From positions 1,321-65,320 of the forward strand of contig JARRNM010000013.1 of assembly GCA_037384945.1 (NCBI GenBank): 64,000 nt of DNA, given 5' to 3'. Both the position numbers and the translations under genes were made by a program. The notes beneath the pieces were generated by a model that saw only the letters and a program-made list of their open reading frames with translations, ran no database searches and had not been told where the DNA came from. Positions 4,641 to 62,545 of this stretch are shown in pieces. Source of the DNA: Deltaproteobacteria bacterium. Its GTDB lineage: Bacteria > Desulfobacterota > Syntrophobacteria > BM002. Each line of letters begins with the position of its first letter. Position 1 is the stretch's first letter.

Positions 4641-4720
4641 AGATTTTTGATTTGGGATTGCGGATTGCGGATTTGGGAAGGCATAGGGCATGGGGTACCA
4701 AAATTTCGAATTTCGAAATC
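4641..4720. repeat. Intergenic hairpin repeat, family A (GATTGCGGATTGCGGATTTGGG ... AAATTTCGAATTTCGAAATC) with a CATAGGGCATGGGG module
   Basis: Related copies at 15484-15603, 17072-17210, 42415-42520, 45925-46030 and 59480-59530. Confidence 0.55.
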
Positions 4721-4759
4721 AATAGAGCCGGCTCCCGCATTCTTTGATTGCCACAGCTT

Positions 4760-5257
4760 TCACATCTTGTACTTGCCGAAGTCCTCCGGGGAGAGATTTT
4801 CCAGAATATCAGTCCATTTTTTGGCCTCCTCATCCTTGATCTCGGCCTTGGGTTCGGCTTCCAGTCTTCCAGACTTTTCTATTACTTTTTCGTCTACATA
4901 AATTTTTGCCTCGGTTCTCAGTGCTATAGCAAGGGCGTCACTGGGTCGGGCGTCTATCTTGCTCTCCTCGCCATTAATAGATAAATAGATCCAGGCATAA
5001 AAAGTGTTGTCTTTCAGGTCGCAGACCTCTACCTTGTTTACCTTGACCCCCAAGTGGCTCATTAAATTTCTGATTAGATCATGAGTCATGGGACGGGAAA
5101 ATTGTACCTTTTCAAGCTCGGTGGCAATGGCGGTAGCCTCTAATAAGCCAATCCAAATAGGCAGTGAGACCTCGCTCTGCGGATCCTTCAACACAACGAT
5201 GGGCGTATTGGTCTGCGGATCCATGGTAAGACCCGATATCTTCATCTCCCGCACCAT
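4760..5257 (-). CDS. Bifunctional nuclease family protein (DUF151) with a C-terminal UVR-like motif
   Basis: MVREMKISGLTMDPQTNTPIVVLKD... matches the DUF151/BFN fold. Start chosen at the internal Met to avoid the overlap with miaB. Confidence 0.7.
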   Translation of the reverse strand: MVREMKISGLTMDPQTNTPIVVLKDPQSEVSLPIWIGLLEATAIATELEKVQFSRPMTHDLIRNLMSHLGVKVNKVEVCDLKDNTFYAWIYLSINGEESKIDARPSDALAIALRTEAKIYVDEKVIEKSGRLEAEPKAEIKDEEAKKWTDILENLSPEDFGKYKM

Positions 5258-6639
5258 GATCTCTCCTTCGCGACTTTCAGATTCACCTTTTCTTCCAGAC
5301 AAACCACACCCTCTAAAGAGTGGGCATGGGCTGTGGTAATCAAGATGGGTATTTCCTCACCAACCATGTGGGGCGCACCCTCAAAATTTACCACCCTGTT
5401 CTGCGGAGTCCGCCCGCTCAGCTGATATCCGCCCATCTGACTCGGTCCTTCAACCAGTACCAGGGATGTCTGCCCCACCTGGGCTTCGTTCTTCTCCAAA
5501 GTTATCCGTTCTTGCAGTTCCTGTAATCTCTGCAAGCGCTCCAGCTTGATCTCTTCTTCAACCTTGCCGTCCAGCAACCTGGCGGCGGCTTTGGCTCGAT
5601 CCGAGTATTTGAAAGAGAAAAGTCCATCAAAGCGAACTTCTTCGAGCAGACTCAGGCTCAGTCGGAAATCCTCCTCTTTCTCACCTGGAAAACCTACTAT
5701 CATGTCTGAGGAGACCGCCACGTCCTTCCGGATTTCTCTTAAGTCCTTGATCAATTCCAGATAGTGACTTCTAGTGTAGCCGCGATTCATCCGCTGGAGA
5801 ATATCGTCAGAGCCCGACTGCACCGGGAGATGAATGTGAGGACAGAGCGGCGGCAGTTCAGAAAAACAGCGCATAAGCGTTGGCGACAGGTCTTTCGGAT
5901 GGGAGGTAGTAAAGCGAATACGCCACAACCCTTTCACTCTTGCCACTCGCTGAAGCAGGCCGGCAAAATCCACTTCCCCGGAAACACCCCGACCGTAGGA
6001 GTTCACATTCTGGCCGAGTAGAGTAACCTCCCGTACGCCGCATTCAATCAGGCTTTCCACCTCCCTGACAATCTCATGGCTTGGCCGACTGCACTCCCTG
6101 CCCCGGACCATGGGCACAATGCAGTAGCTACAAAAATTATCGCAACCTCTCATGATGGTCACGAAGGCCGAGACTTCAGGCTTACGAGGTTGCGTCCTGC
6201 CATCCGCTGCGTCGCCAAACTCGTAAGAGAAACTTACCCAGGCCTGCCTTTCTCCGGTGGCTTCAAAGCGGGCGAGCATGGCCGGAACTTTGCTTATAGA
6301 ATGAGTTCCCACCACCAGGTCCAAATGGGGCCATCGGACCAATAATTCCTCTCCATATTGCTGAGCCACGCAACCGCCCAAGGCCACCACCAGTTCCGGG
6401 CGATTACGTTTGAGAGTCTTGAGCCGTCCCAAATAGCTGAAGGCCTTTTGCTCTGCCTTGTCGCGCACAGAACAGGTGTTGATGAATATCAGATCTGCCC
6501 TCCGATAATCCTCCACAGCTATAAATTGCTCTCCTGCAAGGATCTCCACCAACCGTTCACTGTCGTAACGGTTCATCTGGCAACCGAAGGTTCGGACAAA
6601 TACTCCCTTTCCTTCATTCTTGCCGGATCGGCTCACCAT
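5242..6639 (-). CDS. miaB: tRNA-2-methylthio-N6-dimethylallyladenosine synthase (radical SAM methylthiotransferase, MiaB type)
   Basis: N-terminal MTTase domain FGCQMN, radical SAM CxxxCxxC (CDNFCSYC), C-terminal TRAM domain. Confidence 0.85.
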   Translation of the reverse strand: MVSRSGKNEGKGVFVRTFGCQMNRYDSERLVEILAGEQFIAVEDYRRADLIFINTCSVRDKAEQKAFSYLGRLKTLKRNRPELVVALGGCVAQQYGEELLVRWPHLDLVVGTHSISKVPAMLARFEATGERQAWVSFSYEFGDAADGRTQPRKPEVSAFVTIMRGCDNFCSYCIVPMVRGRECSRPSHEIVREVESLIECGVREVTLLGQNVNSYGRGVSGEVDFAGLLQRVARVKGLWRIRFTTSHPKDLSPTLMRCFSELPPLCPHIHLPVQSGSDDILQRMNRGYTRSHYLELIKDLREIRKDVAVSSDMIVGFPGEKEEDFRLSLSLLEEVRFDGLFSFKYSDRAKAAARLLDGKVEEEIKLERLQRLQELQERITLEKNEAQVGQTSLVLVEGPSQMGGYQLSGRTPQNRVVNFEGAPHMVGEEIPILITTAHAHSLEGVVCLEEKVNLKVAKERSWCGR

Positions 6640-7417
6640 CAGAGCTCCCTTCCAGTTCTTTCTGAAGCTTGCTTATCTTCTTTGTGGCCTGCGACAGTCG
6701 TCTGGCTAAATTGGCGATAATTTTCTTGGCAATCTCAGGATGTTCTTCAATCATATCTTGAATGTCATCGCCCGAATATACCTGAACCACGCTATTTCCT
6801 TTGGATATTATGGTTGCAGAGCGTGCTTCCTTCAGTACGCTCGCCATCTCCCCGAAAAACTCGCCAGGATTACTAATATAGCCGACCTCCTTGCCACCCT
6901 TCAATACCACCAGCCCCTGTTCTGCGGATACAAGTTTGAAAATATCAGTCTCTCTCGCCCCCTCGTGAATAATCACTTCGTTGTCTCCATAAAAACGCAT
7001 GTCTATGTTCTGCGTTTTGCTCTCAGAGTTCTCCAGCCCTACGGCTTGAATTGTCTGGGTCAGCTGACTCAGAAGAGAGGCCAAGATCCCTCTGCTCATC
7101 TGCGGCCGCTCGTACAGGATGAACTCTATGGCATCTCGGTCATACAGGGCTATTCTGGTACTATCTAGTGAGCGCGCACTTACGCTGGAAGGCCGATTCA
7201 AGAAACAGCTCTCCAACCCGAATACATCCCTTTCCCCGAGGATGGCCAGTTGGCGGTTGTGGCGGAGGATCTTCACATTTCCGCTGAGAACTACGTAAAA
7301 GTGATTGCTGTGCTCTCCCTCGGAAACAATCTCCTTGTCTTCGCCGTAGGTGCGAATTTCTAAAGCGGTTGCCCCGTCTTCTAGGTCTAAGTCTTTCTGC
7401 CCTTCTCCATCCACCAC
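6614..7417 (-). CDS. Tandem cyclic-nucleotide-binding (CAP_ED) domain protein
   Basis: Two cNMP-binding-like segments (FGEMASV..., FGLESCF...). Confidence 0.7.
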   Translation of the reverse strand: MVDGEGQKDLDLEDGATALEIRTYGEDKEIVSEGEHSNHFYVVLSGNVKILRHNRQLAILGERDVFGLESCFLNRPSSVSARSLDSTRIALYDRDAIEFILYERPQMSRGILASLLSQLTQTIQAVGLENSESKTQNIDMRFYGDNEVIIHEGARETDIFKLVSAEQGLVVLKGGKEVGYISNPGEFFGEMASVLKEARSATIISKGNSVVQVYSGDDIQDMIEEHPEIAKKIIANLARRLSQATKKISKLQKELEGSSDGEPIRQE

Positions 7418-7539
7418 AGCTGCACCTCGCAGGCCTCCCCCCTAGAGGCCATGTAGTGCGGCGGCGTTCAAGGATAACCCCGATGGAGGTTAACCTTTAT
7501 CCCAGCCGTCCGCAATTTTCAAGGGCAAATTATTTCTGA

Positions 7540-7773
7540 CTATGGAGCAGTGAGCCGCTCGAGCCCCAGTTCTCCACTCAGGGCCTGCAAGAGAGACTCC
7601 AGGCTGTCCTGGCGTCCCGGTGGCACTGCCAGTTGGATTAAACCTGTCTTAGAATTCAAAGTCGTCAGTGTTGCTAGCCCTTCGTAGGCTTCCAGAATAA
7701 ACTTAAGATAGTGAATCTCATAAGGATCGATCCGGTAGAACAGCAGGTCTGATCGCTTTAGAACAATGGCCAT
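7540..7773 (-). CDS. Hypothetical small protein (77 aa)
   Basis: ORF with reasonable codon usage. No recognisable motif. Confidence 0.35.
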   Translation of the reverse strand: MAIVLKRSDLLFYRIDPYEIHYLKFILEAYEGLATLTTLNSKTGLIQLAVPPGRQDSLESLLQALSGELGLERLTAP

Positions 7774-7914
7774 TGTTTACCTCACGCATCCTGTGTCGTC
7801 ACGTTACCATTTTTGACCAGTGGTTACAAGGGTCATGCCCAATGTCTCGAGGCGCTACGCTGTTCATCCAGAGCCATCGAGCTTTTCTCTAACAATGTTC
7901 AGTCCGGTGATGGC

Positions 7915-8010
7915 CAGTCCGTTGTCGGTAGTCCGTGGTCCGTTGCTTAAAAAAAGAGATCCGAGTTTCACTTTGCAAGGGACAACCGACTACGGACAAC
8001 GGACCTACCC
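7915..8010. repeat. Intergenic hairpin repeat, family B (GTAGTCCGTGGTCCGTTGC ... GACAACCGACTACGGACAACGGACC)
   Basis: GTCCGT-type motifs shared with 1175-1210, 1540-1575, 36120-36160, 46100-46145 and 49665-49780. Confidence 0.55.
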
Positions 8011-8230
8011 AGCTCTTTCCCCTTGACTATGATGGAGAGTTGCGATTTATTCTGCCAAACCACCCCAAGATGAATCGGAGACAGAGAAACGCGGACAAAC
8101 GGAGACCGGGAGGATTGACCACAAGGCCTATACTTGTCTGATTTGATCAAAATCGATATCTTACAGAAATTCGCCTCTCCATCTCACCACCTCGCGGTCT
8201 CACCCTGTCAGCTCCATCAGAAATTATTCT

Positions 8231-9997
8231 TTGTCCGCCCTTTGTGAGCAGGAAAGGATGAACGCTAAAAGTACGCTCGAAACCATTAGGGGAAATCGTT
8301 TCCTTTGGCACCTCAGGGCGGCCAACCACGCTCTCGCTTATGAAATAGAGAAGGCTCTGGCAATCCCTCCATTGATCTGTCTAATCCTCACCACTCGGAA
8401 TATTACTTGCCAGGTGCAGGCTAAGAATTTCCTCTACTCGCGACTCAAAGACATGCACTCTCCATACCAATTGCCAGGTATCGACAAAGCAGTTACCCGC
8501 ATTGCGGGCGCTATAGCTGAAGGAGAGCAAATGGCAATTTATGGGGACTACGATGTGGATGGGATTACCGGCACCGCTCTCCTTGTCCATTTCCTGTCCT
8601 CACTGGGGGGGAGAGTCCATTGGCACATATCCCACCGTATTAAAGAAGGTTACGGTCTCAACAGCGAACCGCTTCAAAGGTTCCACGGCAAGGGAGTCAC
8701 CCTGGTGGTTACGGTGGACTGCGGCAGCACAGACCATCAACCCATTCAGTTGGCACGCGAGCTCGGCATGGACATAATCGTTACCGACCATCATAAGCTG
8801 CCCGATGTCCTTCCGGATGCAAATGCTATTTTGAATCCCCAAGGAATTGAAGAAAAGGGAGAACTAGCAGATCTGGCCGGAGTCGGGGTGGCCTTCTATC
8901 TCGTAACCGCTGTCCGCGCCTATTTCCGTAGTCAGGGTCGATGGACCAGCTCCGAACAACCCAACCTCAAGAAATATCTCGAGCTGGTAGCCTTGGGCAC
9001 ATTAGCGGACATGATGCCACTCACCGGTACTAATAGAGTTCTGGCCTCGGTTGGCCTATCAGAGCTTTCTAAAACACCCAGCCTCGGCCTGCAGGCCCTC
9101 AAAGAAGTCTGTGGTATTCGGGGCAAGAAAGTAAGTGACTGGGATGTATTGTTTCGTTTGGGACCCCGCCTCAATGCTCCCGGACGTCTGGGCGACGGCG
9201 AGCCGGCTCTCCGCCTTCTTTTGACTTCCGACTCTGCAGAAGCGCAAAAACTAGCCCAGCAACTTGAACAGCTCAATCGTCAACGGCAAACATTGGAAAA
9301 ACAACTTTTGGCCGAGGCCTTAAGTCTCATCGACTCAAACAAAGCCCATCAGGAAAACAGCTCGCTTGTCCTCGCCTCGCCGGGCTGGCATAAAGGTGTT
9401 TTGGGGCTCGTAGCCTCGCGCTTGACTGAGCGCTTCGGCAAACCAACCATTCTCCTCACTCAGGTAGACGAGATCTGGGAGGGATCCGGGCGCAGTGTCG
9501 CCAACTTCGATCTTTATCGGGCACTAGCTCGGTGTAAGAAGTACCTGGCTCGATTCGGCGGTCATCGGTTAGCTGCGGGGGTAGGTCTTGCTCAGAGCCA
9601 ACTCGGTGAGTTCCGCCGCGCCTTTGAACAAGTGGTAAAGGAGGAGATTACTCCAGAAGACAGCCAGCAGCCAAGGAAATTCGATGCTATGGTTCGTCTG
9701 GAGGAAATCACCCCAGAGTTGATGACCTATCTCGAACGAATGCAACCTTACGGTGTGGGCAATCCGGAGCCTGTTTTTTGCTGTCGAGATTTCCAGGTGG
9801 AAGACCCTCAGATACTGCAGGGGAGTCATTGGCGTCTGAGGCTGCGGCAGGGCAGAGTTCGTTTGCCAGGCATAGGTTTCAATCTCTTGGAGTTCGATCA
9901 ATCGTTACCCTTGCCTCAGTTTTTACTGTTCAGCCCCAGATGGAACCACTGGCGCGGCGAGCGACAAATCCAGCTGCATATCATTGACTACAAATAA
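8231..9997 (+). CDS. recJ: Single-stranded-DNA-specific exonuclease RecJ
   Basis: DHH motifs (YGDYDVDGITG, VTVDCGS, TDHH) and the DHHA1 region. Confidence 0.9.
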   Translation: MSALCEQERMNAKSTLETIRGNRFLWHLRAANHALAYEIEKALAIPPLICLILTTRNITCQVQAKNFLYSRLKDMHSPYQLPGIDKAVTRIAGAIAEGEQMAIYGDYDVDGITGTALLVHFLSSLGGRVHWHISHRIKEGYGLNSEPLQRFHGKGVTLVVTVDCGSTDHQPIQLARELGMDIIVTDHHKLPDVLPDANAILNPQGIEEKGELADLAGVGVAFYLVTAVRAYFRSQGRWTSSEQPNLKKYLELVALGTLADMMPLTGTNRVLASVGLSELSKTPSLGLQALKEVCGIRGKKVSDWDVLFRLGPRLNAPGRLGDGEPALRLLLTSDSAEAQKLAQQLEQLNRQRQTLEKQLLAEALSLIDSNKAHQENSSLVLASPGWHKGVLGLVASRLTERFGKPTILLTQVDEIWEGSGRSVANFDLYRALARCKKYLARFGGHRLAAGVGLAQSQLGEFRRAFEQVVKEEITPEDSQQPRKFDAMVRLEEITPELMTYLERMQPYGVGNPEPVFCCRDFQVEDPQILQGSHWRLRLRQGRVRLPGIGFNLLEFDQSLPLPQFLLFSPRWNHWRGERQIQLHIIDYK

Positions 9998-9999
9998 GC

Positions 10000-10150
10000 A
10001 AGAGCATGGGGCATAGGGATGGAGGTTGGAGGAGCGCTCCGCTTCAGGTTGGAGGCAGGGATCAAGGCTTTTCAGCCGGAATGTTGGAATACTGCAAGGA
10101 TGGAATGATGGATCGTACAACCCTGTACCCAACATTCCAATATTCCATCA
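10000..10150. repeat. Intergenic composite repeat: a GCATAGGGATGGAGGTTGGAGG module plus a 34-bp inverted repeat (GGAATGTTGGAATACTGCAAGGATGGAATGATGG / CCAACATTCCAATATTCCATCATTCC)
   Basis: Perfect hairpin potential, read directly. Lies downstream of recJ. Confidence 0.5.
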
Positions 10151-10234
10151 TTCCTCCTAGGTGACTTCCGCCCTCTGTCTTCTTACCGGCCGACCCTTTG
10201 GTAAATATGGGTGAGCGGGGTAGCGTGAAAATCC

Positions 10235-11548
10235 TTGCTATTGCCTGAACCCTATGCTAGTAAGATGAAGCCTTGCCAATCCCTCTTTTTAAGCAACAAT
10301 GGCAGGACCAGCTACATGGTCTGTTCTAAAGACAAAATTGTACCTCTCCGAGTAAGGTTCACAGGTATTGGGGCGAGAAATATCTGGGTCGTGGTGGTTC
10401 TTTGCCTCTTGCTCTCTCTAGGTTCTCTCCCTGCCTCAGGGCAAGATAAGACTCTCAATAAACCGCTGGTTGCCTCCGGCCTAAGTCCAATGATGGGAAA
10501 GGACTCGGCAGATGCACGAAGCCTTGCCCTGCGGGAAGCTCTGCGCGCCGCGGTGGAACAGGCTCTCGGTTATCTCTTGCCTGCTCAAAACATTGTCCAC
10601 TACTACCCTCTTTTGTCGAACCGTATACTCAAAGAGCCCATGAGTTATGTGAAGGATTACCAAATAGTCCAAGAAGGCGAGGTATCTGGGCTCTATCGGG
10701 TTACGGTGCAAACTACTCTCTATTCTGAAAATCTAACCCGCGACTTGCGTCGACTTGGCATGTTTCTCGCTGCCAGTGAGCGCCCTAGGATAGCTATTTT
10801 GGTTGCTGAGCGCACCAGTCCCGACGAACCCTGGACATGGTGGTGGCAGACTGGGGTTGTCCATGAGAAGCCACCTCTTTTTCTGCCGGCTCTTTCGAAG
10901 CTCATGGCTGAACGGGGGCTAGTTCCGCTAACTCCTTCCTCACTGTCAGAGAGAATACCGCCAGACCCAAATTTCCAAGTACCCCTGCTGGACGACGCCC
11001 AGGGTGCCGCACTGGCAAAGGCTCTGGCGGCAGATGTAGCAGTACTGGGTCAGGTAAGTTACCGTGCTACCGGCATGGGCCAAACAGGAATGACCAGTGG
11101 TTCCCTCCGGGCTGTGCGGGCAGACAATGGCGAGACCCTTGCCAGGGTCTCCGCCACAGTACAGGTCCAGCCCTCCATCGAGCAGTCAATGATCGACTAC
11201 GGTTTTACTGCTCTGGCAGAACGTCTGGCCCCACACCTGGAGGATGGAATATTGGCCCCCTATGCGGCAGTATCCAAAGCTCCCATGGATGTTTCTCTCC
11301 AGGTGGAAGGGGTGCGTTCCTATGGAGATCTAATTCTCATTAAGGAGTACCTCCAACGCTCACCAGTAATAAAAGAAATAAGGCAGATTAAGCTGAAAGG
11401 TGACCTGGGGATTTTTTCTCTGATTCTCGCGGGAAGGGCCGATGCCCTAGAGCAGTCATTGGAGGGTAAAGACTTTGGTGGTTTTGTTACCAGCGCGGAA
11501 CTGGTGGGCGAAAACCTTGTAAAAGTTACCATCCTCAGTAAGAGGTAA
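10235..11548 (+). CDS. Periplasmic/lipoprotein-like protein with an LPP20/FlgT_N-like N-terminal domain after a signal peptide. The true start may be an internal Met.
   Basis: Signal-like NIWVVVVLCLLLSLGSLPASG, then SADARSLALREALRAAVEQALG, which is typical of LPP20/FlgT N-domains. Confidence 0.6.
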   Translation: MLLPEPYASKMKPCQSLFLSNNGRTSYMVCSKDKIVPLRVRFTGIGARNIWVVVVLCLLLSLGSLPASGQDKTLNKPLVASGLSPMMGKDSADARSLALREALRAAVEQALGYLLPAQNIVHYYPLLSNRILKEPMSYVKDYQIVQEGEVSGLYRVTVQTTLYSENLTRDLRRLGMFLAASERPRIAILVAERTSPDEPWTWWWQTGVVHEKPPLFLPALSKLMAERGLVPLTPSSLSERIPPDPNFQVPLLDDAQGAALAKALAADVAVLGQVSYRATGMGQTGMTSGSLRAVRADNGETLARVSATVQVQPSIEQSMIDYGFTALAERLAPHLEDGILAPYAAVSKAPMDVSLQVEGVRSYGDLILIKEYLQRSPVIKEIRQIKLKGDLGIFSLILAGRADALEQSLEGKDFGGFVTSAELVGENLVKVTILSKR

Positions 11549-11560
11549 GCCCCTGCTTAA

Positions 11561-12118
11561 ATGACCATTCCCAATCTACTCACCATTTTACGTGTCCTGC
11601 TGACACCCCTGTTGGTAATTTTTCTCCTGGAAGAAAGGCTCAACGAAGCTCTTGTCGTCTTCATAGTAGCAGGCATCACTGACGGGCTGGACGGCTTGAT
11701 CGCCCGTTTATACAGGCAAAAATCCAAGTTGGGAGCCTTCCTGGACCCCTTAGCGGACAAGCTGCTCCTGGCTACCACCTACGTGCTTCTAGCCGTAAAG
11801 AACCTGGTTCCTAGTTGGCTCACTGTAATTATATTGAGTCGAGACGTGCTCATCCTTGTGGGCATTTTTGTCTTATTTATGCAAGATCTGCCATTTGAAA
11901 TCAGGCCAACTATCGCCAGCAAACTCACCACCTGTTCCCAGATCTTCACTGCCATAGTCACCATGGCATCGGCCATCGCCACCCCCCACCCTCTTCTCAA
12001 GAGCATTCTCTTTAACATCACCGCCGGATTCACTATTGTTTCCTGGACTCAATACATGGTCAAGGGGATACGCCTGATGCAGGGAGCAGGGGACAATCAA
12101 GAGAACAGACGGCAGTGA
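11561..12118 (+). CDS. pgsA: CDP-diacylglycerol--glycerol-3-phosphate 3-phosphatidyltransferase (CDP-alcohol phosphatidyltransferase family)
   Basis: CDP-OH phosphatidyltransferase motif DGLDGLIAR...GAFLDPLADK. Confidence 0.85.
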   Translation: MTIPNLLTILRVLLTPLLVIFLLEERLNEALVVFIVAGITDGLDGLIARLYRQKSKLGAFLDPLADKLLLATTYVLLAVKNLVPSWLTVIILSRDVLILVGIFVLFMQDLPFEIRPTIASKLTTCSQIFTAIVTMASAIATPHPLLKSILFNITAGFTIVSWTQYMVKGIRLMQGAGDNQENRRQ

Positions 12119-12157
12119 GCAGCTGGCAACCGGCAACTGGATGGGCGGAAATTTTTC

Positions 12158-12186
12158 TTGACAGTGAACAACTGTCCTGATACTTA
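12158..12186 (+). promoter_or_regulatory. Candidate sigma70-type promoter for tRNA-Val: TTGACA, 17 nt spacer, TACTTA
   Basis: -35 TTGACA at 12158-12163 and -10-like TACTTA at 12181-12186, about 18 nt upstream of the tRNA 5' end. Confidence 0.4.
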
Positions 12187-12203
12187 GTAAAAGCTCTAGA
12201 TAT

Positions 12204-12278
12204 AGGCACGTAGCTCAGGGGGAGAGCACTACCTTGACGCGGTAGGGGTCTGGGGTTCAAATCCCCACGTGCCTACCA
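12204..12278 (+). tRNA. tRNA-Val (anticodon GAC) with encoded CCA
   Basis: Cloverleaf folded by hand. Acceptor AGGCACG/CGTGCCT, D-arm GCTC/GAGC, anticodon stem CTACC/GGTAG with loop TTGACGC, T-arm TGGGG/CCCCA with loop TTCAAAT, 3' CCA. Confidence 0.9.
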
Positions 12279-12342
12279 GAAATTGTTGATAAAGGTGTTA
12301 ATAACGACCTACATGTGCTGTAAAAACTAGTGGTAAGCAAGA

Positions 12343-12385
12343 GGCATCGGAGAACCTAGCGTTCGGATGCCTTTTCTTATTTTTT
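12343..12385 (+). terminator. Rho-independent terminator: GGCATCGGA...TTCGGATGCC hairpin plus a T-tract
   Basis: 9-bp stem with one mismatch, followed by TTTTCTTATTTTTT. Sits between tRNA-Val and the thrS RBS. Confidence 0.6.
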
Positions 12386-12399
12386 GACCAAGGAGCATT

Positions 12400-14328
12400 A
12401 TGGAAGAGATAAATGTGGTCAAGCGAGCTGGCGAGCGCCAGAGATTGCCAAAGGGCACAACCGCAGGGGAAGCCCTAAAAATAATGGAAGAGCAAAAGGG
12501 CAACCCGGCGGTGGCCGCCAAATTAGACGGCAAACTTGTTGATCTCAGCCGCACTCTGGAGCATGACTGTGTTCTCGAACCACTCGGGCAGGAAAGTGAG
12601 GAGGCTCTGGAGATCCTTCGCCACACTGCCTCGCACGTGATGGCCCAAGCGGTGCAAATCCTCTATCCGCAAGCGAAGATTACCATCGGACCTGCCATAG
12701 AAAACGGTTTCTATTATGACTTTGATTGCCCTGACACTTTTAGTGCGGAAGACCTCCCTCGGATCGAAGCCAAGATGGATGAGATAATTAAGCGGGCCAC
12801 ACCCATCCAGCGCAGAGTACTGGATAGACAGAAAGCAATCCAGCTCTTCAGGGAGAAAAATGAGACTTACAAGGTCGAAATGTTAGAGGAGATGGAAGAT
12901 CCCACGGTGTCGGTCTACGGACAGGACGACTGGCTTGATCTTTGTCGTGGTCCCCACCTGATCAATACAAGTGAGGTTAAGGCCTTCAAGCTCACCGGGG
13001 TTGCCGGGGCATATTGGCGTGGCGACGAGCGCAATCCCATGCTCCAGAGAATTTACGGTACGGCCTTTTTTTCCAAAAAGGATTTGAAGAGACATCTTCA
13101 CCTCCTCGAGGAGGCCCGCAAGCGAGATCACCGCAAGTTAGGCCGAGAACTCGATCTCTTTCAGGTCAGCGATGAGGCGGGGCCCGGGTTGATCATCTAT
13201 CATCCCAAAGGTGCCTTGCTTCGCCATGTCCTTGAGACCTTTGAGAAAGAAGCGCACCTTCGCCGTGGTTACCAAATGGTTATCGGACCGCAATTACTCA
13301 AGACCGAGATGTGGAAGAGGTCCGGCCACTTTGAAAACTACCGGGAAAACATGTATTTCACCGAGGTGGAAGGGCAATCATACGGCATCAAGCCCATGAA
13401 CTGCCTGGCCCACATGCTGATTTACAAGTCTACCATTCGTTCTTACCGTGATCTGCCCATTCGCTATTTCGAGATGGGTTTGGTGCATCGCCATGAAAAG
13501 TCCGGTGTACTTCATGGTCTGACCCGAGTGCGACAGTTCACCCAGGATGACGCTCATTTGCTTTGCACCCCTGAGCAACTCAACGACGAGATCAAGGGAA
13601 TTATTGATTTTGCCCTTGATATGCTCCAGCTCTTTGGCTTCGAGTACGAGATCGAACTCAGCACCCGGCCGGAAAAACGTATCGGCACAGACGAGGATTG
13701 GGAGAGGGCCACCACCGCCTTAGAAGAAGCCCTTCGGGACAAGGAGATTTCCTATAAGATTCGTGCCGGCGAGGGTGCCTTCTATGGCCCCAAGATTGAC
13801 ATACTGCTCAAAGATGCCCTGAACCGGCGGTGGCAGTGCTCAACCATTCAGTGCGATTTCACTTTGCCGGAGCGTTTCGATCTAACTTATATCGGAACCG
13901 ACGGCGAAAAGCATCGTCCGGTAATGCTTCACCGTACCCTACTCGGCAGTATGGAAAGATTTCTAGGGATTCTCATAGAACATTACGCCGGGGCCTTTCC
14001 TACTTGGCTGGCACCTGTACAGGCTATTATTCTCACGGTTACCGACCGGCAACTGGCCTACGGTGAAGGGTTGTACCAGCGTCTCCTGAGTGCAGGGGTC
14101 AGAGTCGAGAAGGACCTGCGCAATGAAAAATTGGGTTACAAGATCCGCGAAGCCCAGCTTCAGAAGATTCCATACATGCTGGTTGTGGGAGACCGGGAGG
14201 TAGAAACAGGTGGAGTCTCTCCCCGCCGGAGAGATGGAAAGGATTTGAAGCTCATGGAGACGGACGCTTTTGTCCGCTTGATAATGGAAGAAAACGGTGT
14301 CACCGATATGGTCCTTAAGGCGAAGTGA
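12400..14328 (+). CDS. thrS: Threonine--tRNA ligase
   Basis: TGS, second additional and class II core domains ([12 protein letters not shown], motif 3 region). Conserved thrS-infC-rpmI-rplT-pheST synteny. Confidence 0.95.
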
Positions 14329-14457
14329 TCAATCTCATACTTGGGATGTGGGCTATAAGATTGGGCGTGTGAGATTCAGTCTCTTAGAGAAGATCTGCCT
14401 ATGGCGTATCTCACATCTCAGATTTCACATCCTTTGCAATGAAAGGAGGGAAGCAAA

Positions 14458-14967
14458 ATAATCAAGCAAGTTAATGTCAACCAAAAGATTAGGGCTCCCC
14501 AAATCCGTCTCATTAGTGAAGACGGTACCCAATTGGGGATCGTGCCGCTGGAAGAGGCATTGGCTCGGGCCGCGGAAGAAAAACTTGATCTGGTGGAGGT
14601 GGCTCCCAAAGCATCCCCCCCTGTATGTAGAATAATGGACTATGGCAAGTATAAGTACATGCAGGCCAAGAAACTACAGGAAGCCAAAAAGAAGCAGACC
14701 ACCATTCAGATAAAGGAAGTGAAAATCCGCCCCAAAACAGAAGAGCACGACTATCAATTCAAACTACGTCACATCAAACGTTTTCTCAGCGAGAAAAACA
14801 AAGCCAAGGTAACTATAATGTTCCGCGGCCGGGAGATTGCCCATTCCGAGCTAGGGCTGAAGGTTCTCGAGCGTATTATTGCCGATATTGAGGAAGAAGG
14901 GATTGTGGAACAAGCGCCTAAGCTAGAGGGAAGAAACATGATCATGATCCTAGCTCCTCGGCAATAG
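14458..14967 (+). CDS. infC: Translation initiation factor IF-3, with a probable non-canonical AUA/AUC start
   Basis: The IF3 N-terminus IIKQVNVNQKIRAPQIRLISEDGTQLGIVPLEEAL lies upstream of the first ATG (14533) and is preceded by SD GGAGGG. infC classically uses an AUU-class start. Confidence 0.8.
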   Translation: MIKQVNVNQKIRAPQIRLISEDGTQLGIVPLEEALARAAEEKLDLVEVAPKASPPVCRIMDYGKYKYMQAKKLQEAKKKQTTIQIKEVKIRPKTEEHDYQFKLRHIKRFLSEKNKAKVTIMFRGREIAHSELGLKVLERIIADIEEEGIVEQAPKLEGRNMIMILAPRQ

Positions 14968-15049
14968 ATCTGCACCTACTCCTATAGACCAAAAGGTTCT
15001 TGGCTCGCTGTTTTGGCGGCAGTGAAGATTTGCGCCTCACTATCCGGGC

Positions 15050-15200
15050 TGGTTGCTTGGTCAGCAAGAATGCCATTACGGATTGAGCGATTTTAGATTT
15101 GAGATGTAAGATTGAAGATTTATCTCTACCAATGTTTTTTAATCTGCAATCTAAATTCTACAATCTGCAATGTGAGTGGTTTCCCCTCTTTTCCACGAGA
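15050..15200. repeat. Hairpin-forming repeat in the infC-rpmI leader (GATTTGAGATGTAAGATTGAAGATTT / AATCTGCAATCTAAATTCTACAATCTGCAAT)
   Basis: Imperfect inverted repeat arms read directly. Confidence 0.45.
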
Positions 15201-15206
15201 AATGAC

Positions 15207-15235
15207 TTGACAATCAACAGGCGACAGAATATTTT
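15207..15235 (+). promoter_or_regulatory. Candidate sigma70 promoter for rpmI-rplT: TTGACA, 17 nt spacer, TATTTT
   Basis: Consensus -35 hexamer, 17-nt spacer, A/T-rich -10. About 40 nt upstream of the rpmI start. Confidence 0.4.
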
Positions 15236-15275
15236 ACAGGATTGCTTTGGGTCCATTTGAGATTGTGGAGTAATT

Positions 15276-15473: not shown

Positions 15474-15483
15474 AGGTGGAGTG

Positions 15484-15603: not shown

Positions 15604-15671
15604 TTTAGCGTCCTTAATCTGTATTTACCTTTTTGACAAGAGATAGTTTGAAACTCGCATAGGGGTATATC

Positions 15672-16025: not shown

Positions 16026-16044
16026 TTCTTCACCTCCCGGAACG

Positions 16045-52604: not shown

Positions 52605-52745
52605 ATGGGACGGCATGGATCATAGAGCATAGGGCAAAGAGCATGGAGCAAGAGGTTTCAGCTGGAAGCAGGCAACGGGCAGCTGGCAGAAAACAGTGTA
52701 GAGACGACAGACGACAGAGGACAGATGACGGAGGACAGGGGGATG
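52605..52745. repeat. Family B low-complexity module (CATAGAGCATAGGGCAAAGAGCATGGAGCAAGAGG...CAGCTGGCAG...GACGACAGACGACAGAGGACAGATGACGGAGGACAGGGGGATGGGC)
   Basis: Reverse complement of the GTCGTCTGTCGTCTG / CTATGCTCCATGCTCT modules of 1360-1540. Confidence 0.5.
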
Positions 52746-52761
52746 GGCAAGTTTTCTCCAT

Positions 52762-53257
52762 GAAATACATGGATCTCATGGTGTTACTTCCGATTTTTCT
52801 GTTTCTAAGTTGTGCCAGTCACCAGATTTCTACACGAGAGTATAATGATATTAAGGCAACTAAGACCTGGTATCTTTGTTTGTCGGGTGAAATGGAAATA
52901 TTCGAAAAGGCCTTGGATAGTGAAGAAGTGGGTGAGATAAAATCGAGAAAGTCTGTACTATTAAGGTGCGATGTTCAATTACTTGACGCCATAGCTAGTA
53001 GTCTGGTTAATAAACACAAAATTGAAATTGTAAAAAAGCCAAATTCTACTTCTGGTTATATTCGTATCGAGTCTTTATGCCGATGGGAACAATACATAAG
53101 TGCCGATATTAATATTTATGGGCCGAAACAAAATCTCTTAGCTAAAGTAAAGGTTAAGAACGGAGAAGATTTTTTTGTAAAAAATGATGAAGAATTTGCT
53201 GAATATTGCGCTGACATCATTGCGGGAATTGTCTTAGGTCCATGGAGAAAGGAATAG
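52762..53257 (+). CDS. Low-GC predicted lipoprotein (~165 aa). The start is trimmed to the Met preceding the signal/lipobox FLFLSC.
   Basis: Signal peptide MKYMDLMVLLPIFLFLSCAS. Strikingly AT-rich relative to its surroundings. Confidence 0.6.
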
Positions 53258-53274
53258 AGGCAACCACGGTTCTT

Positions 53275-53640
53275 TTAGGAGGCACCGCTCGCCTCTAGAG
53301 CCATTTGAATCTTCTTTTTTAGTTCAGTCAGATCGAAAGATTTCACCACATAAAAATCGGCGGCAATGGATTTCATGTCCTCCTTAAAGGTGTCGTAGGC
53401 AGTGGAGAGTATAACCGGCAAATCGTAGAACTTGTTACGGATATCCTGCAATAAATCCAAACCGTTGTAGTCCACCATCTTTATATCAAGGACGACCAAA
53501 TCAGGCTTTTCCTGTTCAATCCGTTCCAGTAATCGATGCCCCCCTTCTGCCGTTATAACGTCGTACCCTTCTTCTTTAAGCTCCTCGGAGTAGAGCAACC
53601 TGATGTGCTCTTCATCATCAACAACTAGTATCTTGGCCAT
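53275..53640 (-). CDS. Single-domain response regulator (CheY-like receiver)
   Basis: MAKILVVDDEE...DLVVLDIKM with the phospho-acceptor Asp context. Confidence 0.85.
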   Translation of the reverse strand: MAKILVVDDEEHIRLLYSEELKEEGYDVITAEGGHRLLERIEQEKPDLVVLDIKMVDYNGLDLLQDIRNKFYDLPVILSTAYDTFKEDMKSIAADFYVVKSFDLTELKKKIQMALEASGAS

Positions 53641-53693
53641 AATTTAATCCTCCAAACTGCCTGAGCAGTTCTTGAATCGAGCGGTTAATCTAT

Positions 53694-54911
53694 TTATTGA
53701 GCGTTTAGCCACTGATTGAGCAAATAAGGCTTGGCCTCCTCGAATATCATACATTCGTTTTCGATGTATTCCTCTGCCTGCTGGATGGACATTCTTTCGG
53801 TTTTCTTGATCAACGACAGCGTCTTACCAACAAAGAGAGGCAATAGTGATTTCAGCAGCACATCCCTTCCCACCACTTCATTCTTATAGGCCACCGAGCA
53901 ACTATAAAGTAGGCGAGCCCAGATTTCCGAAGGAAAGCTAAAATGCGCCTGAGGCAGCTCCTTGATTTCCCCCAGCTTATTATTGATGTTGTTTGGCAAA
54001 AAGGTTTCCCATAAGTCTTTATATTGGCTAAAGCCCTCAACAAAAGCTCGGTGAAGTTCGTCCTGCAAGATCTCAATTGGTGGGGGCGTTTCTACTTCAC
54101 CCATGCCGAAACCGTATATTGCCGTGGGCTTACTCCACTTTACTCTTTCCCAGACATCCTGAAAACGGATCATCAGATCAAGAACGGTACCCACCACTTG
54201 AGAGAAAGTCGGCTCAGAGGCAACACCATTTCCGTTATTCTGGGAGACTCTCGGTTTACCTACAAAGGCCTGACAGATTGGGACGCCTTGACACATGGCT
54301 AGAGTGGTCATCCAGATATCAACCCCATATTGAGCCACTCGATCATTCCAGCTGGGATGGTTGAGATAAGTCTCAGCCATCACTGCATCAAAGGCAAAAT
54401 CGCCACCGATGGGCTGCCGCACCCGGCGACCATAGAGAGCTCGTGTCATCGGATAAACTATGCCGTTTGCCATGGCATCATTGTACTTGTGCCTCACGTA
54501 CAATGGGGCTACAAAACCGAATCCGGCGAAAATGGGCTCTCCGAGGTTTTTGATCCACATGGGAGTAATACTCTCCACCCCTGCGTCCACTGCTATCACC
54601 GCTTGCGCCTGTAGTTCAACTGCCTTGGCTGTAAGATTTCTTAGGTTATAGCCTCGCCCGACCACTCCCGGGGGTGTTGACAGGTATATTAGAAATGCTT
54701 CTTTGGTTCCATCCTCGGAGTGATTATCGCAATTGATAATCACCGAACTTTTCTCACCAAAATGATCTACGAGACCTTTGGCAGCTTGCTCAGTTGACAG
54801 GGCGATGTTCCCTGCATTGGTATGAGAGGATAAGCCGACAACCAGGTCAGCCCGTTCCACTTTTCCGGGATTTTCCTCGTATGCTAGCATATTTGTACTT
54901 TCCCCAGGCAT
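53694..54911 (-). CDS. GT-A-fold glycosyltransferase (GT2/GT81-like; possibly a glycosyl-glycerate/phosphoglycerate synthase type)
   Basis: ADLVVGLSSHTNAGNI, then VIINCDNHSEDGTKE (the DxxSxDxT-type motif of GT-A enzymes) and AVIAVDAGVES (DxD-like). Confidence 0.5.
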   Translation of the reverse strand: MPGESTNMLAYEENPGKVERADLVVGLSSHTNAGNIALSTEQAAKGLVDHFGEKSSVIINCDNHSEDGTKEAFLIYLSTPPGVVGRGYNLRNLTAKAVELQAQAVIAVDAGVESITPMWIKNLGEPIFAGFGFVAPLYVRHKYNDAMANGIVYPMTRALYGRRVRQPIGGDFAFDAVMAETYLNHPSWNDRVAQYGVDIWMTTLAMCQGVPICQAFVGKPRVSQNNGNGVASEPTFSQVVGTVLDLMIRFQDVWERVKWSKPTAIYGFGMGEVETPPPIEILQDELHRAFVEGFSQYKDLWETFLPNNINNKLGEIKELPQAHFSFPSEIWARLLYSCSVAYKNEVVGRDVLLKSLLPLFVGKTLSLIKKTERMSIQQAEEYIENECMIFEEAKPYLLNQWLNAQ

Positions 54912-55082
54912 CGTATTTAATCCAAAAATATAGTAATTACAGATTATTGCCTTGGCTTTGACTATTTACACTATCAGAGATAAAAAGTAAACTGTTTTTC
55001 CCTGCGACTTGACCACCCAACCGGCAAAATCGACCTCAGCTTTTCCAGCAGCGCATATTCTGCTTATCCTTCACCATGTTTT

Positions 55083-55255
55083 CACTCTTCCCACTCCCCA
55101 CACAACCACTCGAGGTTTCCTAGGAGTTCAGCATATTCCTCGGGGTTCTCCCGGCAAATCTTAAGTATGTCCCTGCATTCCTCCTGAACTCTGTGGAAGT
55201 CCTCGATCAATTTCGCTGCCCCTTCCGTCATTTGGTCTTTGCAGTCCCTCTTCAT
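55083..55255 (-). CDS. Hypothetical small Cys-containing protein (57 aa)
   Basis: Hand-translated MKRDCKDQMTEGAAKLIEDFHRVQEECRDILKICRENPEEYAELLGNLEWLCGEWEE. Below the ORF-track cutoff. Confidence 0.25.
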
Positions 55256-55763
55256 CTCTTTAACATAGTTACTTTCAAGGGGTTAAACTAGCCCGGATGT
55301 TTCATGAATTCACACCCTGGCGTGACTGCGACCGTGGGTTTGGCCGCCCTTCCGGGCATACTTCTTGCCTAGTATATCTTTAGAATCGCCCAGATCGACC
55401 TAAAAAAGCAACACAATTCCAATTAGTTGTATAAGTTTGTCCAATGTTGGTTTTTTGTTACCCACAAGGGGACACTAGGAGAGTAGTTTGATGATACCCT
55501 CGCCAACACCGAAAGATATGACTGTGATGATTTTCCTGGCTATTGCCTGGTGGCTATTTTTGGTGGGGATGGTCTTTTGAATTTGCCATTCCCTATCATG
55601 ATCGTGGTTTTTTAACTTGACAGAGGGAACCTTGTTTATGTTAAGCTGCATTCACTGCGCTGTTTGGTTTTTCTCTTCCTGGGGCTTGCCTTTTGCCTCA
55701 ACAATAGCCCTATTTGTCTAACCCACCTGCATAACCATAAGTTGTGTTACCCCAGAGAAAAAC

Positions 55764-56210
55764 ATGGCATTGGTAAAATTATTACGCCCTGTACTTTGGG
55801 CAAGGAGGGATCCATCAATGAGTGCAAAAAGAATTGTAATCATCGATGATGATCCGGAAATTTGTGATGCCTTGAGCCAAATTCTCTCCCAGTATGGCTA
55901 TGAGGTTTTCACCGCTCTGGATACAAGCAAAGGCTACCAGCTTTTTGTCGACACTCGACCGGATCTGCTCATCCTAGACATCATGATGGAAACCATGGAT
56001 GAGGGGCTAAACTTTGCCACCGAAATCAAAAAGAACGATGGTGTTTTCGGAGTGCCCATACTCATTGTTTCTGCCAGGCCACCGGCGGAAAAGGGATACG
56101 GCCGATCCCTGGATGAGGATTTGGACTGGATTCATGCGGATATCTTCATGGAAAAGCCCATCGAGCCTGAAGAACTTATCCACAATGTGAAACTTCTAGT
56201 TAAAGACTAG
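55764..56210 (+). CDS. Single-domain response regulator (receiver)
   Basis: RIVIIDDDPEI...DLLILDIMME...PILIVSA. Confidence 0.8.
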   Translation: MALVKLLRPVLWARRDPSMSAKRIVIIDDDPEICDALSQILSQYGYEVFTALDTSKGYQLFVDTRPDLLILDIMMETMDEGLNFATEIKKNDGVFGVPILIVSARPPAEKGYGRSLDEDLDWIHADIFMEKPIEPEELIHNVKLLVKD

Positions 56211-57084: not shown

Positions 57085-57170
57085 GAGCTGACACCACTGT
57101 GGGCTTTGGGTCTCAGGTTTCAGGTGTCAGGTTTCAGAAATGAAAGACCTGAACACTGAAACCTCGCTCT
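57085..57170. repeat. Hairpin module GGTCTCAGGTTTCAGGTGTCAGGTTTCAG ... CCTGAACACTGAAACC
   Basis: Homologous to 59640-59720 and 39005-39060. Confidence 0.5.
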
Positions 57171-59425: not shown

Positions 59426-59586
59426 CCCGGAGACTTTTGGAGTGGAAAAACAGCAGTTATTTGTTGATTTTAGAACATTCCCTTCCGATTTAGGATTGCG
59501 GATTTATGGATCAAGTAAAGAATCCGACTCCTGAGGACCAGGTTTCGGGCATCCCCGGAACTGGTCTATCCTCGTGAGGGACTCTG

Positions 59587-59850
59587 CTGGAGTAATGGAA
59601 CCTATGAAATCCCAAACTCCAAGCACCAAATCTTAGGGTTTTAGGTGTCGGGTGTCAGGTGTCAGCCTTTGTGTTTCTCCTCCCTGACACCTGAAACCTG
59701 AACACTGAAACCTTAGTCCTTCTTCTGTGGAATTTTCGGATACTCCACTACTCCAGTACTCCAATAGAGCTTACGATCTTTAACGGCAAAGCCTTCAGTT
59801 TTCACCTGGCTCAGAGGACCAGTTTCTCTTCGATCAAATAAACCCGCCAA
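59587..59850. repeat. ~260 bp composite repeat (family A termini GGAGTAATGGA ... ACTCCACTACTCCA, internal GGTGTCAGG hairpin, 3' conserved tail), upstream copy flanking the GGDEF-EAL gene
   Basis: The termini and the ~80 bp 3' tail (CCAAT.GAGCTTA...GGCAAAGCC.T..AGTTT.ACCTGG..CAGAGGACC.G.TTTCTCT) are shared with 62316-62545 in the same orientation. Confidence 0.6.
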
Positions 59851-59895
59851 TAAACCTTCTCAGACAGGCCTGATCGGCCAATCTCTCCATTAGAC

Positions 59896-62079: not shown

Positions 62080-62248
62080 TCTCACCCAGCATTTTTTCTA
62101 ACCCGGCGATTGTTTCCTCAAGTTCTTCGATCTCTTGAACCTGGTGCGGTCGAACAGAATGAGCCGGCAAAGCAGTTTCTCTATCGCGAAGCCTCGCTTT
62201 CAGTTCCTCAATTTCCTCAAGCAATCTTTCTCTTTTGCTCTTAGCCAT
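62069..62248 (-). CDS. Hypothetical 59-aa coiled-coil protein (SlyX-like flavour). Its stop overlaps the 3' end of the GGDEF-EAL gene.
   Basis: Hand-translated MAKSKRERLLEEIEELKARLRDRETALPAHSVRPHQVQEIEELEETIAGLEKMLGEITS. Confidence 0.25.
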   Translation of the reverse strand: MAKSKRERLLEEIEELKARLRDRETALPAHSVRPHQVQEIEELEETIAGLEKMLGEITS

Positions 62249-62315
62249 CTATTGTTCCCCTTCAGTCTAGGCTAATCCGCCCAGGGAGATATAAGAGGTG
62301 AGATGCGGTAGCCTG

Positions 62316-62545
62316 CCGGAGTAATGGAGTCCAGCGATTTTAAATTTTAGAATGAAGATTTCAGATTTAAGAGCTCAGAACTCACCGGCACGAGATGCAT
62401 GAAGCTTCATTCTGCAATCAACAATCCAAAATCATAAATGATATTTGCTCCACTACTCCAATGTAGCTTATTTAAAGGCAAAGCCCTTGAGTTTGACCTG
62501 GCCCAGAGGACCTGGTTTTCTCTACGGTTAAAGAATAATTCCTCT
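62316..62545. repeat. ~230 bp composite repeat, downstream copy flanking the GGDEF-EAL gene. Same termini and 3' tail as 59587-59850 but a different internal hairpin (GAATGAAG...CTTCATTC).
   Basis: See 59587-59850. Confidence 0.6.

Follow-up and report, generated by a model that had tools for sequence, protein, structure and literature searches.

Tandem arrays of heptanucleotide units have been known in cyanobacteria since 1990, when the short tandemly repeated repetitive (STRR) heptamers were reportedly described by Mazel et al.; to our knowledge, no function or origin is accepted for heptamer repeat arrays. In this work a stretch of 64,000 nucleotides of contig JARRNM010000013.1 (assembly GCA_037384945.1, positions 1,321 to 65,320), hereafter the window, was analysed. 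This segment belongs to the chromosome of an uncultured Syntrophobacterales bacterium (Desulfobacterota), and its intergenic spacers carry many short heptamer arrays, often facing each other as inverted pairs. These elements are a real and abundant example of a bacterial repeat type already described, and no new category is opened by them. A literature search on the array strings returned no matching paper.

Among the closest described objects are those of Geobacter metallireducens, which, in our placement, belongs to the Desulfobacterota like the host of the window. In that genome Aklujkar et al. (2009; PMC2700814) reported sites paired on opposite strands and made of 3-5 tandem 7-9-nt units (Gmet_I classes 1-3), together with a heptanucleotide element of GGACCGG x4 (Gmet_H4) present in 49 copies; the sites are lacking in G. 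sulfurreducens and were guessed to bind integration host factor (IHF), HU or unknown global regulators. The elements of the window likewise combine 3-5 tandem 7-9-nt units, opposite-strand pairing, a variable spacer and tens of intergenic copies, with inverted array pairs that enclose loops of 14-67 nt and fold with z scores down to -6.3. They are of one kind with the Geobacter sites, distinguished by a larger number of families and by explicit nesting. Unlike the few fixed consensus classes of G. metallireducens, they comprise at least ten unit families, concentric nesting and partnerless series. Of the published Geobacter units (GTTGCTYN, TCTCCGTS[Y], MTYCTGA and GGACCGG), MTYCTGA resembles TTCTGAA/TTCCTGA arrays of the pheT-merR spacer in two related genomes (L165 and L168) but is not clearly present in the window; the sequence comparison with Geobacter covered this one consensus unit.

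Intergenic heptamers were also reported by Rehm et al. (2015; PMC4692102), who studied GGGAATC of Xanthomonas and GGGGA(T/C)T of Nostoc, some of them inverted, as G-quadruplex formers and found their length and sequence to differ greatly from one close species to another, at positions that are conserved. The arrays of the window consist of head-to-tail 7-nt copies at many dispersed, mainly intergenic loci, and share with these repeats and with the STRR heptamers the unit length, the intergenic position, the many loci and the occasional inverted pairs; the window units GGGGAAT and GGGGATT (15512-15536) differ little from those of Nostoc and Xanthomonas. The Nostoc and Xanthomonas arrays are, however, mostly direct, longer and more perfect, whereas those of the window are short, imperfect and mostly hairpin-forming. 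As relayed in PMC4679880 and PMC4692102, Mrazek (2007) reported that in many genomes no long repeat unit is as over-represented as the heptanucleotide, and proposed a slippage tied to the DNA polymerase footprint. TAACTGA direct repeats were described in marine Beggiatoaceae by MacGregor (2015; PMC4679880). They too are short intergenic heptamer arrays (2-6 copies) with a patchy cross-phylum spread, ribosomal-protein operons included, but consist of one unit, nearly always direct and just upstream of start codons, whereas the window has many units, mostly inverted and in no fixed position. Abundant intergenic palindromes in mosaics, often within operons and after stop codons, are characteristic of repetitive extragenic palindromic (REP) sequences, bacterial interspersed mosaic elements (BIMEs) and REP doublets forming hairpins (REPINs). 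The elements described here share the abundance and the mosaic joining of palindromes, while their arms are internally periodic and contain neither a constant REP sequence nor a GTAG foot.

Heptanucleotide periodicity and architecture of the elements

A first-pass annotation had listed 15 loci with mosaic hairpin repeats, and at all 15 the sequences that it named were found in place. Counted on both strands and compared with 50 dinucleotide shuffles, GATTGCGGATTTGGG occurred 14 times in the window against 2.6 in the shuffles, CCGAAATCCGAAATC 21 against 2.3, GGAGTAATGGA 13 against 1.2, GTCCGTGGTCCG 21 against 3.5, GACGACAGACGACAG 15 against 0.8, CATAGGGCA 3 against 0.4 and GTTTCAGGTGTCAGG 13 against 1.8. 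These counts, inflated by overlapping registers but still representing 3-8 separate loci per module, correspond to an enrichment of 5- to 19-fold over the shuffled controls, and nearly all matches are non-coding.

The common property of the modules, missed in that annotation, is that each repeats a 7-nt unit (8 or 9 nt in a few) imperfectly in tandem. A period scan (21-nt sliding window in which at least 15 bases equal the base seven further on) identified 42 period-7 segments in the window, compared with 0.33 in block shuffles. With periods 3-6, 10, 11 and 13 there were 0-2 segments, period 8 gave six, periods 9 and 12 four each, and period 15 three, while 19 segments were obtained with period 14 (twice seven). 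Tandem Repeats Finder was concordant with the scan (2-6 copies, 67-100% match). Although non-coding DNA makes up 18% of the window, it holds 1401 of the 1539 period-7 bases (91%); an element is present in 19 of the 38 spacers of at least 60 nt, with no bias toward tandem, convergent or divergent gene pairs. Over the whole window the presence of arrays was not significantly related to local GC (p = 0.14). In our delimitation 21 elements (Table 1) occupy about 3.4 kb, about 29% of the non-coding DNA of the window.

Arrays are 3-7 units long and draw on a broad but preferred unit set: GCGGATT, GGTGTCA/GGTTTCA, CATAGGG, GTCCGTx, CAGCTGG, GACGACA, TAGTGCC, TGGAGTAx and GGAATRTT. Single-linkage clustering of the units at one mismatch merged nearly all of them, as it did random controls, and was uninformative. 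A CRISPR array was ruled out, the units being 7-9 nt and directly abutting, versus repeats of 24-47 nt with unique spacers.

At about two-thirds of the loci an array and its complement form long, often nested hairpins with arms of 20-50 nt and loops of 14-67 nt, while the others are one-stranded series that do not fold. At most loci the complementary array comes 15-50 nt after the first. Folding of whole spacers gave weak and mixed z scores relative to shuffles, and the elements were then folded singly. Eight of them reached z <= -3 (7915-8010, 10060-10165, 17072-17210, 19780-19895, 33755-33845, 38975-39080, 57085-57170 and 59630-59720), whereas the partnerless series at 52605-52745, 46035-46150 and 35800-35930 folded as well as or worse than their shuffles (z -0.5 to +2.0). 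The earlier description as hairpins thus applies to these eight, and more weakly to some others, but not to the array series that have no partner. Complementarity between arms was 0.79 in register, 0.62 when shifted by one unit, 0.53 by two units and 0.20 off-period; the register is the best fit, so some of the in-register excess is selection bias.

Analysis of the composite loci showed that the period-8 TGGAGTAx arms are invariably outermost, around GCGGATT-type or GGTGTCA-type hairpins (layered loci at 17070-17211, 15477-15610, 38975-39080, 59585-59770 and 62310-62465). Three junctions recur at 3-5 loci: TGGAGTAxxTCGATTGCGGATT, which leads from TGGAGTAx to GCGGATT, GGATTGYGGATTTGrnAAGGCATrGGG, from GCGGATT to CATAGGG, and GTCCGTGGTCCrTTGCTyAAA, from GTCCGTx to TTGCTCAAA. 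Dispersed, intergenic, largely hairpin-forming mosaic repeats are present as first annotated, but the submodules are not randomly shuffled: their order is non-random, and the organising rule is the 7-nt tandem periodicity. A composite of about 100 nt is common to 1150-1620 (reverse strand) and 35760-36230; the 3' ~100 nt of the element at 35700-36170 match the opposite strand of 1200-1300 with ~85% identity. Comparison of 59560-59870 with 62290-62545 revealed the same outer arms and a 75-nt tail around different inner hairpins. This tail of about 75 nt (59767-59840 and 62458-62530; GGCAAAGCC..GTTT.ACCTGGC.CAGAGGACC..TTTCTCT) comes after the right outer arm of both composites and gave no convincing fold on either strand.

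Equivalent spacers in related genomes and occurrence beyond the clade

Both the gene content and the best matches of the window are those of Syntrophobacterales. Contigs 99.9% identical to it are present in four Joint Genome Institute (JGI) metagenomes, and the closest genomes are metagenome-assembled genomes (MAGs) labelled Deltaproteobacteria or Syntrophobacterales, with PheS identities of 87, 87 and 84%. A scan of metagenome contigs for nearer relatives found none above 76% identity. Syntenic relatives, obtained via protein search and look-up of the encoding contigs, form a ladder of PheS identity (L165-167, 94%; L168-170, 93%; L171-172, 89%; L005/L006, 87%; L007, 84%), across which synteny is perfect from miaB to a Ser/Thr kinase gene.

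The relatives carry the same repeat units, but different modules in equivalent spacers. The pheS-pheT spacer is near-empty in L168 and L169 (112 nt, just TTGGAGTAATCCAA), has the outer TGGAGTAx arms alone in L171 and L007, the outer arms with a GCGGATT hairpin in the window and with a GGTGTCA hairpin in L165 and L006, and a GGTTTCA hairpin without outer arms in L005. One left outer arm is common to the rpmI-rplT spacers of the window, L165, L168 and L171, which have four different interiors. The AT-rich hairpin of the infC-rpmI spacer (15085-15180) is missing from that spacer in every relative examined, and a near-copy lies in the rpmI-rplT spacer of L007. In the pheT-merR spacer the sequence AAGCACT AGGCACC is present as 2 units in the window and L171 and as 7 units at the same site in L165, where the central hairpin is a different, period-8 module. 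Alignment across sites showed that AGGTGTCGGGTGTCAGGT is identical at 59643 of the window, at 11086 of L165 (pheS-pheT spacer) and at 2712 of L006, and that CCTGAAACCTGAACACTGAAACC, at 59690 of the window, recurs in L165 with 1 mismatch. Such non-orthologous copies share exact non-periodic detail, which shows that modules have been copied. Element positions matched near relatives at 48-59%, versus 70-79% in the remainder of the same spacers. No target-site duplication was visible on comparison of filled with near-empty orthologous sites, a comparison limited by their divergence. Of the features of miniature inverted-repeat transposable elements (MITEs), inverted arms are present, and the window contains no insertion sequence.

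As a separate observation, the near-identical strains L168 and L169 differ over 8.9 kb at 187 positions that are clustered in thrS and mglB, away from the arrays, with none elsewhere; this pattern is a recombination mosaic and not uniform divergence.

Across 84 genome loci, period-7 arrays around pheS reached a high density in no group but the window clade (0.2-1.3 per kb), being sporadic elsewhere. Nevertheless, AATCCGM arrays were found in the Syntrophobacteraceae MAGs L010 and L013 and GGAATACT arrays in the Desulfobacterales MAG L018, while the IMG/VR matches comprised 89 stretches with GGTGTCRGGTGTCAGGT and at least 120 with AATCCGM x3. Exact (AATCCGC)3 occurred in 54 stretches of viral contigs against 1 and 10 for two composition-matched permutations (5-50x). 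In the fetched viral loci the median GC was 0.62, array density reached 2 per kb and ~270 consensus units were present, and 21 of the 49 units of the window clade were also present in this set, against 12 +/- 2.9 for permuted units. Genes on one viral-catalogue contig, L252, include that of a phage portal protein and one for a DUF7453 protein, every named homologue of which is from Planctomycetota; three consecutive spacers of this probably planctomycete contig each contain a GGTGTCA hairpin that is close to perfect. Another, L337, carries a capsid gene and direct GCGGATT arrays. Capsid and portal similarity linked the array-rich viral contigs to no close cultured phage, and BLAST of two composite elements against plasmids gave no match. 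With the same units in Syntrophobacteraceae MAGs (68-69% PheS identity), in a lineage of 63-66% PheS identity and in many high-GC viral contigs, the module set is not lineage-specific as had been proposed; the constant feature is the period, with some units clearly favoured.

Elements and other features of the window

The genes of the window include thrS-infC-rpmI-rplT-pheS-pheT-merR, mglB-mglA, mutL-miaA, mreB, valS, recJ, a miaB-like gene and lptF/G, among others. Elements do lie, as the first reading of the sequence had it, in the spacers of thrS-infC-rpmI-rplT-pheS-pheT and beside valS. The long miaA open reading frame (ORF) overlaps the hairpin at 33755-33845, and its Pfam matches start at residue 68 (PF01745) and residue 102 (PF01715).

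Table 1. Repeat elements delimited in the window, with the z score of the fold relative to shuffles where one was given
Position	Location	Composition	z
1172-1573	Spacer between two minus-strand ABC genes	Composite: outer GTCCGTx / xACGGAC arms 1180-1198, 1546-1571; period-9 arrays 1203-1295; hairpin 1268-1354; CTGTCGT/TCTGACC arrays 1357-1433; CTATGCC arrays 1455-1502	
4639-4720		GGATTGC array 4640-4682; CATAGGG units 4683-4697; AATTTCG array 4702-4717; weak fold	-1.1
7915-8010	Divergent spacer upstream of recJ	Hairpin GTCCGTx x4 / xACGGAC x4; arms 30 nt, 87% complementary; loop 28 nt	-6.0
9998-10165	Abuts recJ stop codon	CATGGGG/CATAGGG units at the stop codon, then period-8 hairpin GGAATGTT... 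/ ...AACATTCC 10078-10154	-3.5
12112-12140	Overlaps stop codon of CDP-alcohol phosphatidyltransferase gene	GCAGCTG/GCAACCG array	
14340-14430	thrS-infC spacer	Degenerate GGGATGT/GAGATTC ... ATCTCAC hairpin remnant; clearer in L168, L005	
15085-15180	infC-rpmI spacer	AT-rich hairpin, arms GATTTWA x5 / AATCTNC x4	
15477-15610	rpmI-rplT spacer	Left outer TGGAGTRA arm and inner GCGGATT-type / AATCCGM hairpin; right outer arm lost	
17070-17211	pheS-pheT spacer	Two layers: outer TGGAGTAT x2 / ATTCCATTACTCCA; inner GCGGATT-type x5 / AATCCGA x3	-4.9
19780-19940	pheT-merR spacer	CAGCxGC-type hairpin 19785-19816 / 19859-19890, 84% complementary, then CCCCATG-type array 19891-19938; 2-unit AAGCACT AGGCACC seed upstream, within 19735-19752 (position by reading)	-5.9
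33755-33845	mutL-miaA spacer	CAGCTGG-type hairpin	-4.1
35700-36170	Divergent mutL / GAF-GGDEF spacer	Large composite, in order: TGGAGTG, GATTGTG then CATGGGG, GGTCGGA arrays, GTCAGTT arm, GCAGGGC and GGCAAAG arrays, period-8 hairpin, period-9 ACGATTTGA array, AACGGAC arm	
38975-39080	Convergent mreB / ABC-ATPase spacer	Outer GGATGGAG / CTCCATTAC; inner GGTTTCA-type hairpin	-3.3
42415-42715		Composite: hairpin CGAATTTCGGATTTCG / GGGGATTGTGGATTTG arms around GC-rich palindromic core 42446-42496; CATAGGG units; TCATTKC / GMAATGA hairpin 42530-42642; pyrimidine-rich array series 42652-42704	
45880-46150	Convergent proC / nadC spacer	GCGGAAT / TTCCCCG hairpin 45931-46040; partnerless TAGTGCC 46038-46072 and GACCACT 46109-46154 arrays	
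49660-49785	Directly upstream of valS (minus strand)	GTCCGTx / CGGACC... hairpin	-2.3
51385-51480	Upstream of lptF/G	TGGAGYRx period-8 arms, one ACTCCATC partner; weak fold	-1.7
52605-52745	Abuts lptF/G stop codon	Purine-rich partnerless series GCATAGA x6, CAGCTGG x4, GACGACA x5	+1.0
57085-57170		GGTTTCA/GGTGTCA hairpin	-4.3
59585-59770		Three-layer composite: outer CTGGAGTAATGGA / TACTCCACTACTCCAGTACTCCAA; middle GAAATCCCAAACTCC... / ...GGAATTTTCGGA; inner GGTGTCR x4 / CCTGAMA x4 hairpin 59633-59716	-6.3 (inner layer)
62310-62465		Outer CCGGAGTAATGGAGT / GCTCCACTACTCCAA arms; GATTTWA-type inner hairpin	

Other repeats of the window are of different kinds. The GC-rich palindrome of about 50 nt at 42446-42496, CCTGCCCGCCATCGCGAG...CTCAGGCGAGGCGGGCGGG, forms the tip of a heptamer-armed hairpin, recurs in L165 near 3975 and 20383 and in the Desulfobacteraceae MAG L047 near 330 and 4602, and looks more REP-like than the heptamer elements. 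A dispersed repeat of 116 nt (28227-28342 and 44837-44952, 78% identical) shows no heptamer periodicity, and each copy is flanked by its own inverted repeat of 21-23 nt (28168-28190 / 28324-28346 and 44778-44798 / 44936-44956); it has the look of a distinct, MITE-like element. In-frame tandem repeats of 96 nt x 5-6 (50194-50769, inside ORF 49849-51111) and 120 nt x 2 (22424-22663, inside ORF 21593-23986, which encodes a large acidic protein downstream of mglA) lie in genes that have no Pfam match, and relatives differ in repeat number. The cyanobacterial octamer HIP1 is not enriched in the window, which, with the Syntrophobacterales gene content and best matches, led to the rejection of a cyanobacterial origin.

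Two genes are split into adjacent ORFs: nadC (QRPTase_N and part of QRPTase_C at 46495-46986, the remaining QRPTase_C at 46150-46467) and a DUF389 gene (27124-27387 and 27406-28101). Either frameshifts, pseudogenes or errors in the assembly account for both splits. The regions 28000-32000 and 52000-56000 have a GC of 0.44-0.47 versus ~0.51 and contain long spacers without any array. The merR-mglB spacer (20369-20553) is array-free and nearly invariant in all relatives examined, and its CTGGAAAAAAGTATTTGCAT resembles, in our own reading, a sigma-54 -24/-12 promoter.

Explanations for the heptamer elements

We tentatively prefer to regard the elements as non-coding, non-autonomous repeat DNA whose dynamics take place at the DNA level, by slippage, module copying and entry or replacement at hairpin tips; this may well be right, at somewhat short of even chances. 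Array length would change in whole units by slipped-strand mispairing, as seen for one array, and non-periodic detail common to the copies shows that whole hairpin modules, imperfections included, were copied into other spacers. Comparison of the same spacers across relatives suggests that modules would enter or be replaced at the apex of an existing hairpin while outer arms were inherited vertically. Either DNA strand, or a transcript, could fold into a long stem with regular mismatches, and effects on the transcript such as 3'-end protection or polarity would be a by-product. Period 7 is dominant and confined to non-coding DNA, junctions are conserved, and there is neither a strand-specific RNA signature nor a preference for gene orientation.

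Several observations weigh against a DNA-level explanation. Among 50 ORFs of the window scanned against Pfam there is no transposase, no REP-associated tyrosine transposase (RAYT) and no other candidate enzyme, and since no target-site duplication was seen either, the copying step has no mechanism. No array indels or changes of unit number were found among same-species contigs, a weak test given that the arrays lie in near-identical blocks. A (TGGAGTAx)4 / (xTACTCCA)4-5 hairpin follows the pheS stop codon directly in a lineage with 63-66% PheS identity (metagenome contigs L094, 6400-6508; L098, 2513-2628; L104, 4167-4290) and is missing from the intermediate Syntrophobacteraceae, which may reflect ancient conservation, site preference or transfer. 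This distant hairpin, together with the excess of (AATCCGC)3 in viral contigs, hints at sequence-specific selection or recognition and not just neutral DNA.

Protection or processing of mRNA by stem-loops has been proposed for REP and BIME sequences. It is possible, though rather doubtful, that the elements likewise act as intercistronic stem-loops in the transcript and, by 3'-exonuclease protection, processing or partial termination, tune operons such as rpmI-rplT-pheS-pheT. Many elements do separate genes that run in the same direction within one operon, and several abut a stop codon, the eight hairpins listed above fold far better than shuffles, the pheS-pheT TGGAGTAx hairpin is kept both in the window clade and in the distant lineage, and the planctomycete-like phage region has its GGTGTCA hairpin in every one of three consecutive spacers. 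Yet the hairpins have no U-tract, although a canonical U-tailed stem (GAGGCATC...GATGCC, then TTTTCTTATTTTTT) is present at 12342-12385, between thrS and tRNA-Val (12204-12275), the sole tRNA of the window. This stem, kept in all relatives examined, is a canonical terminator or attenuator, and the genome thus does use U-tailed hairpins. A terminator scan of 1-20000 placed no site on an element (25 sites versus 21 by chance), but allowed loops of 3-8 nt only and could not have flagged these hairpins; with loops of 14-67 nt and tails that on reading are not T-rich, they do not have the form of intrinsic terminators. With Rfam 15 at gathering score no element matched, the single match being tRNA-Val. 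In 24 stems with known direction of transcription, 34 G·U pairs fell on the sense and 33 on the antisense strand (104 other mismatches, symmetric scoring), and there is therefore no sign of selection on a transcript helix. About one-third of the loci fail to fold, units face either way with respect to transcription (for the CATAGGG family, by reading), elements are missing from some orthologous spacers of close relatives, and they are less conserved than the remainder of the spacers. The earlier proposal of transcript processing or attenuation gained nothing in its favour.

Less probable still, and in our judgement unlikely, is that the arrays would serve as multi-site binding platforms, double- or single-stranded, for a nucleoid-associated or global regulator that reads a 7-8-nt repeat. 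The IHF/HU or unknown global regulator suggested for the G. metallireducens sites (PMC2700814) is a precedent, and three units span 21 bp, which by our reckoning is about two helical turns. The first seven bases of TGGAGTAx are conserved and the eighth is free. The unit preference extends across phyla, as seen in the viral counts of (AATCCGC)3 and in the 21 shared clade units. The at least 49 consensus units of the window clade and the ~270 of the viral sample are, however, too many for one or a few proteins; no candidate protein was found, and arrays come and go at orthologous sites with no visible consequence.

We consider it improbable that there was no copying at all, each array having arisen by local replication slippage of a chance 7-nt duplication and the likeness between arrays being due to compositional or mutational bias. 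In many bacteria heptamers rank first in frequency among long repeat units (Mrazek 2007, as relayed in PMC4679880 and PMC4692102), one in-place expansion was directly seen, and the unit spectrum is broad. Nevertheless, copies at unrelated sites share non-periodic detail, flanks, junctions and layer order, and complementary arrays are paired too regularly in register (0.79 vs 0.62, a best-fit value that includes some selection bias). Finally, that the elements are REP/BIME or REPIN sequences moved by a RAYT encoded elsewhere in the genome is very improbable: although they are intergenic, palindromic, mosaic and abundant, and the separate GC-rich palindrome of ~50 nt (42446-42496), dispersed in L165 and L047, is more REP-like, reading of the elements and their flanks revealed neither a palindrome of 20-40 nt that stays constant nor a conserved foot of GTAG type, the arms belong to at least ten unrelated unit families, and no Y1 transposase or RAYT lies within the 64 kb, so that membership of the REP/BIME class is not supported.

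There is a small chance that a conserved putative factor recognises a limited heptamer set (GCGGATT, GGTGTCA, TGGAGTA and others) and drives module insertion at the hairpin apex. If so, nested periodic palindromes would constitute a new class of non-autonomous mobile DNA spanning Desulfobacterota, Planctomycetota and phage. The elements also matter for the assembly of such genomes, and for their annotation, as the arrays coincide in part with spurious ORFs and start codons. The window and its syntenic ladder provide a convenient natural experiment that shows arrays expanding in place, modules replacing one another and hairpin tips with nested modules; the comparison argues against a strand-specific RNA role, and other phyla and phage-like contigs contain these units as well.

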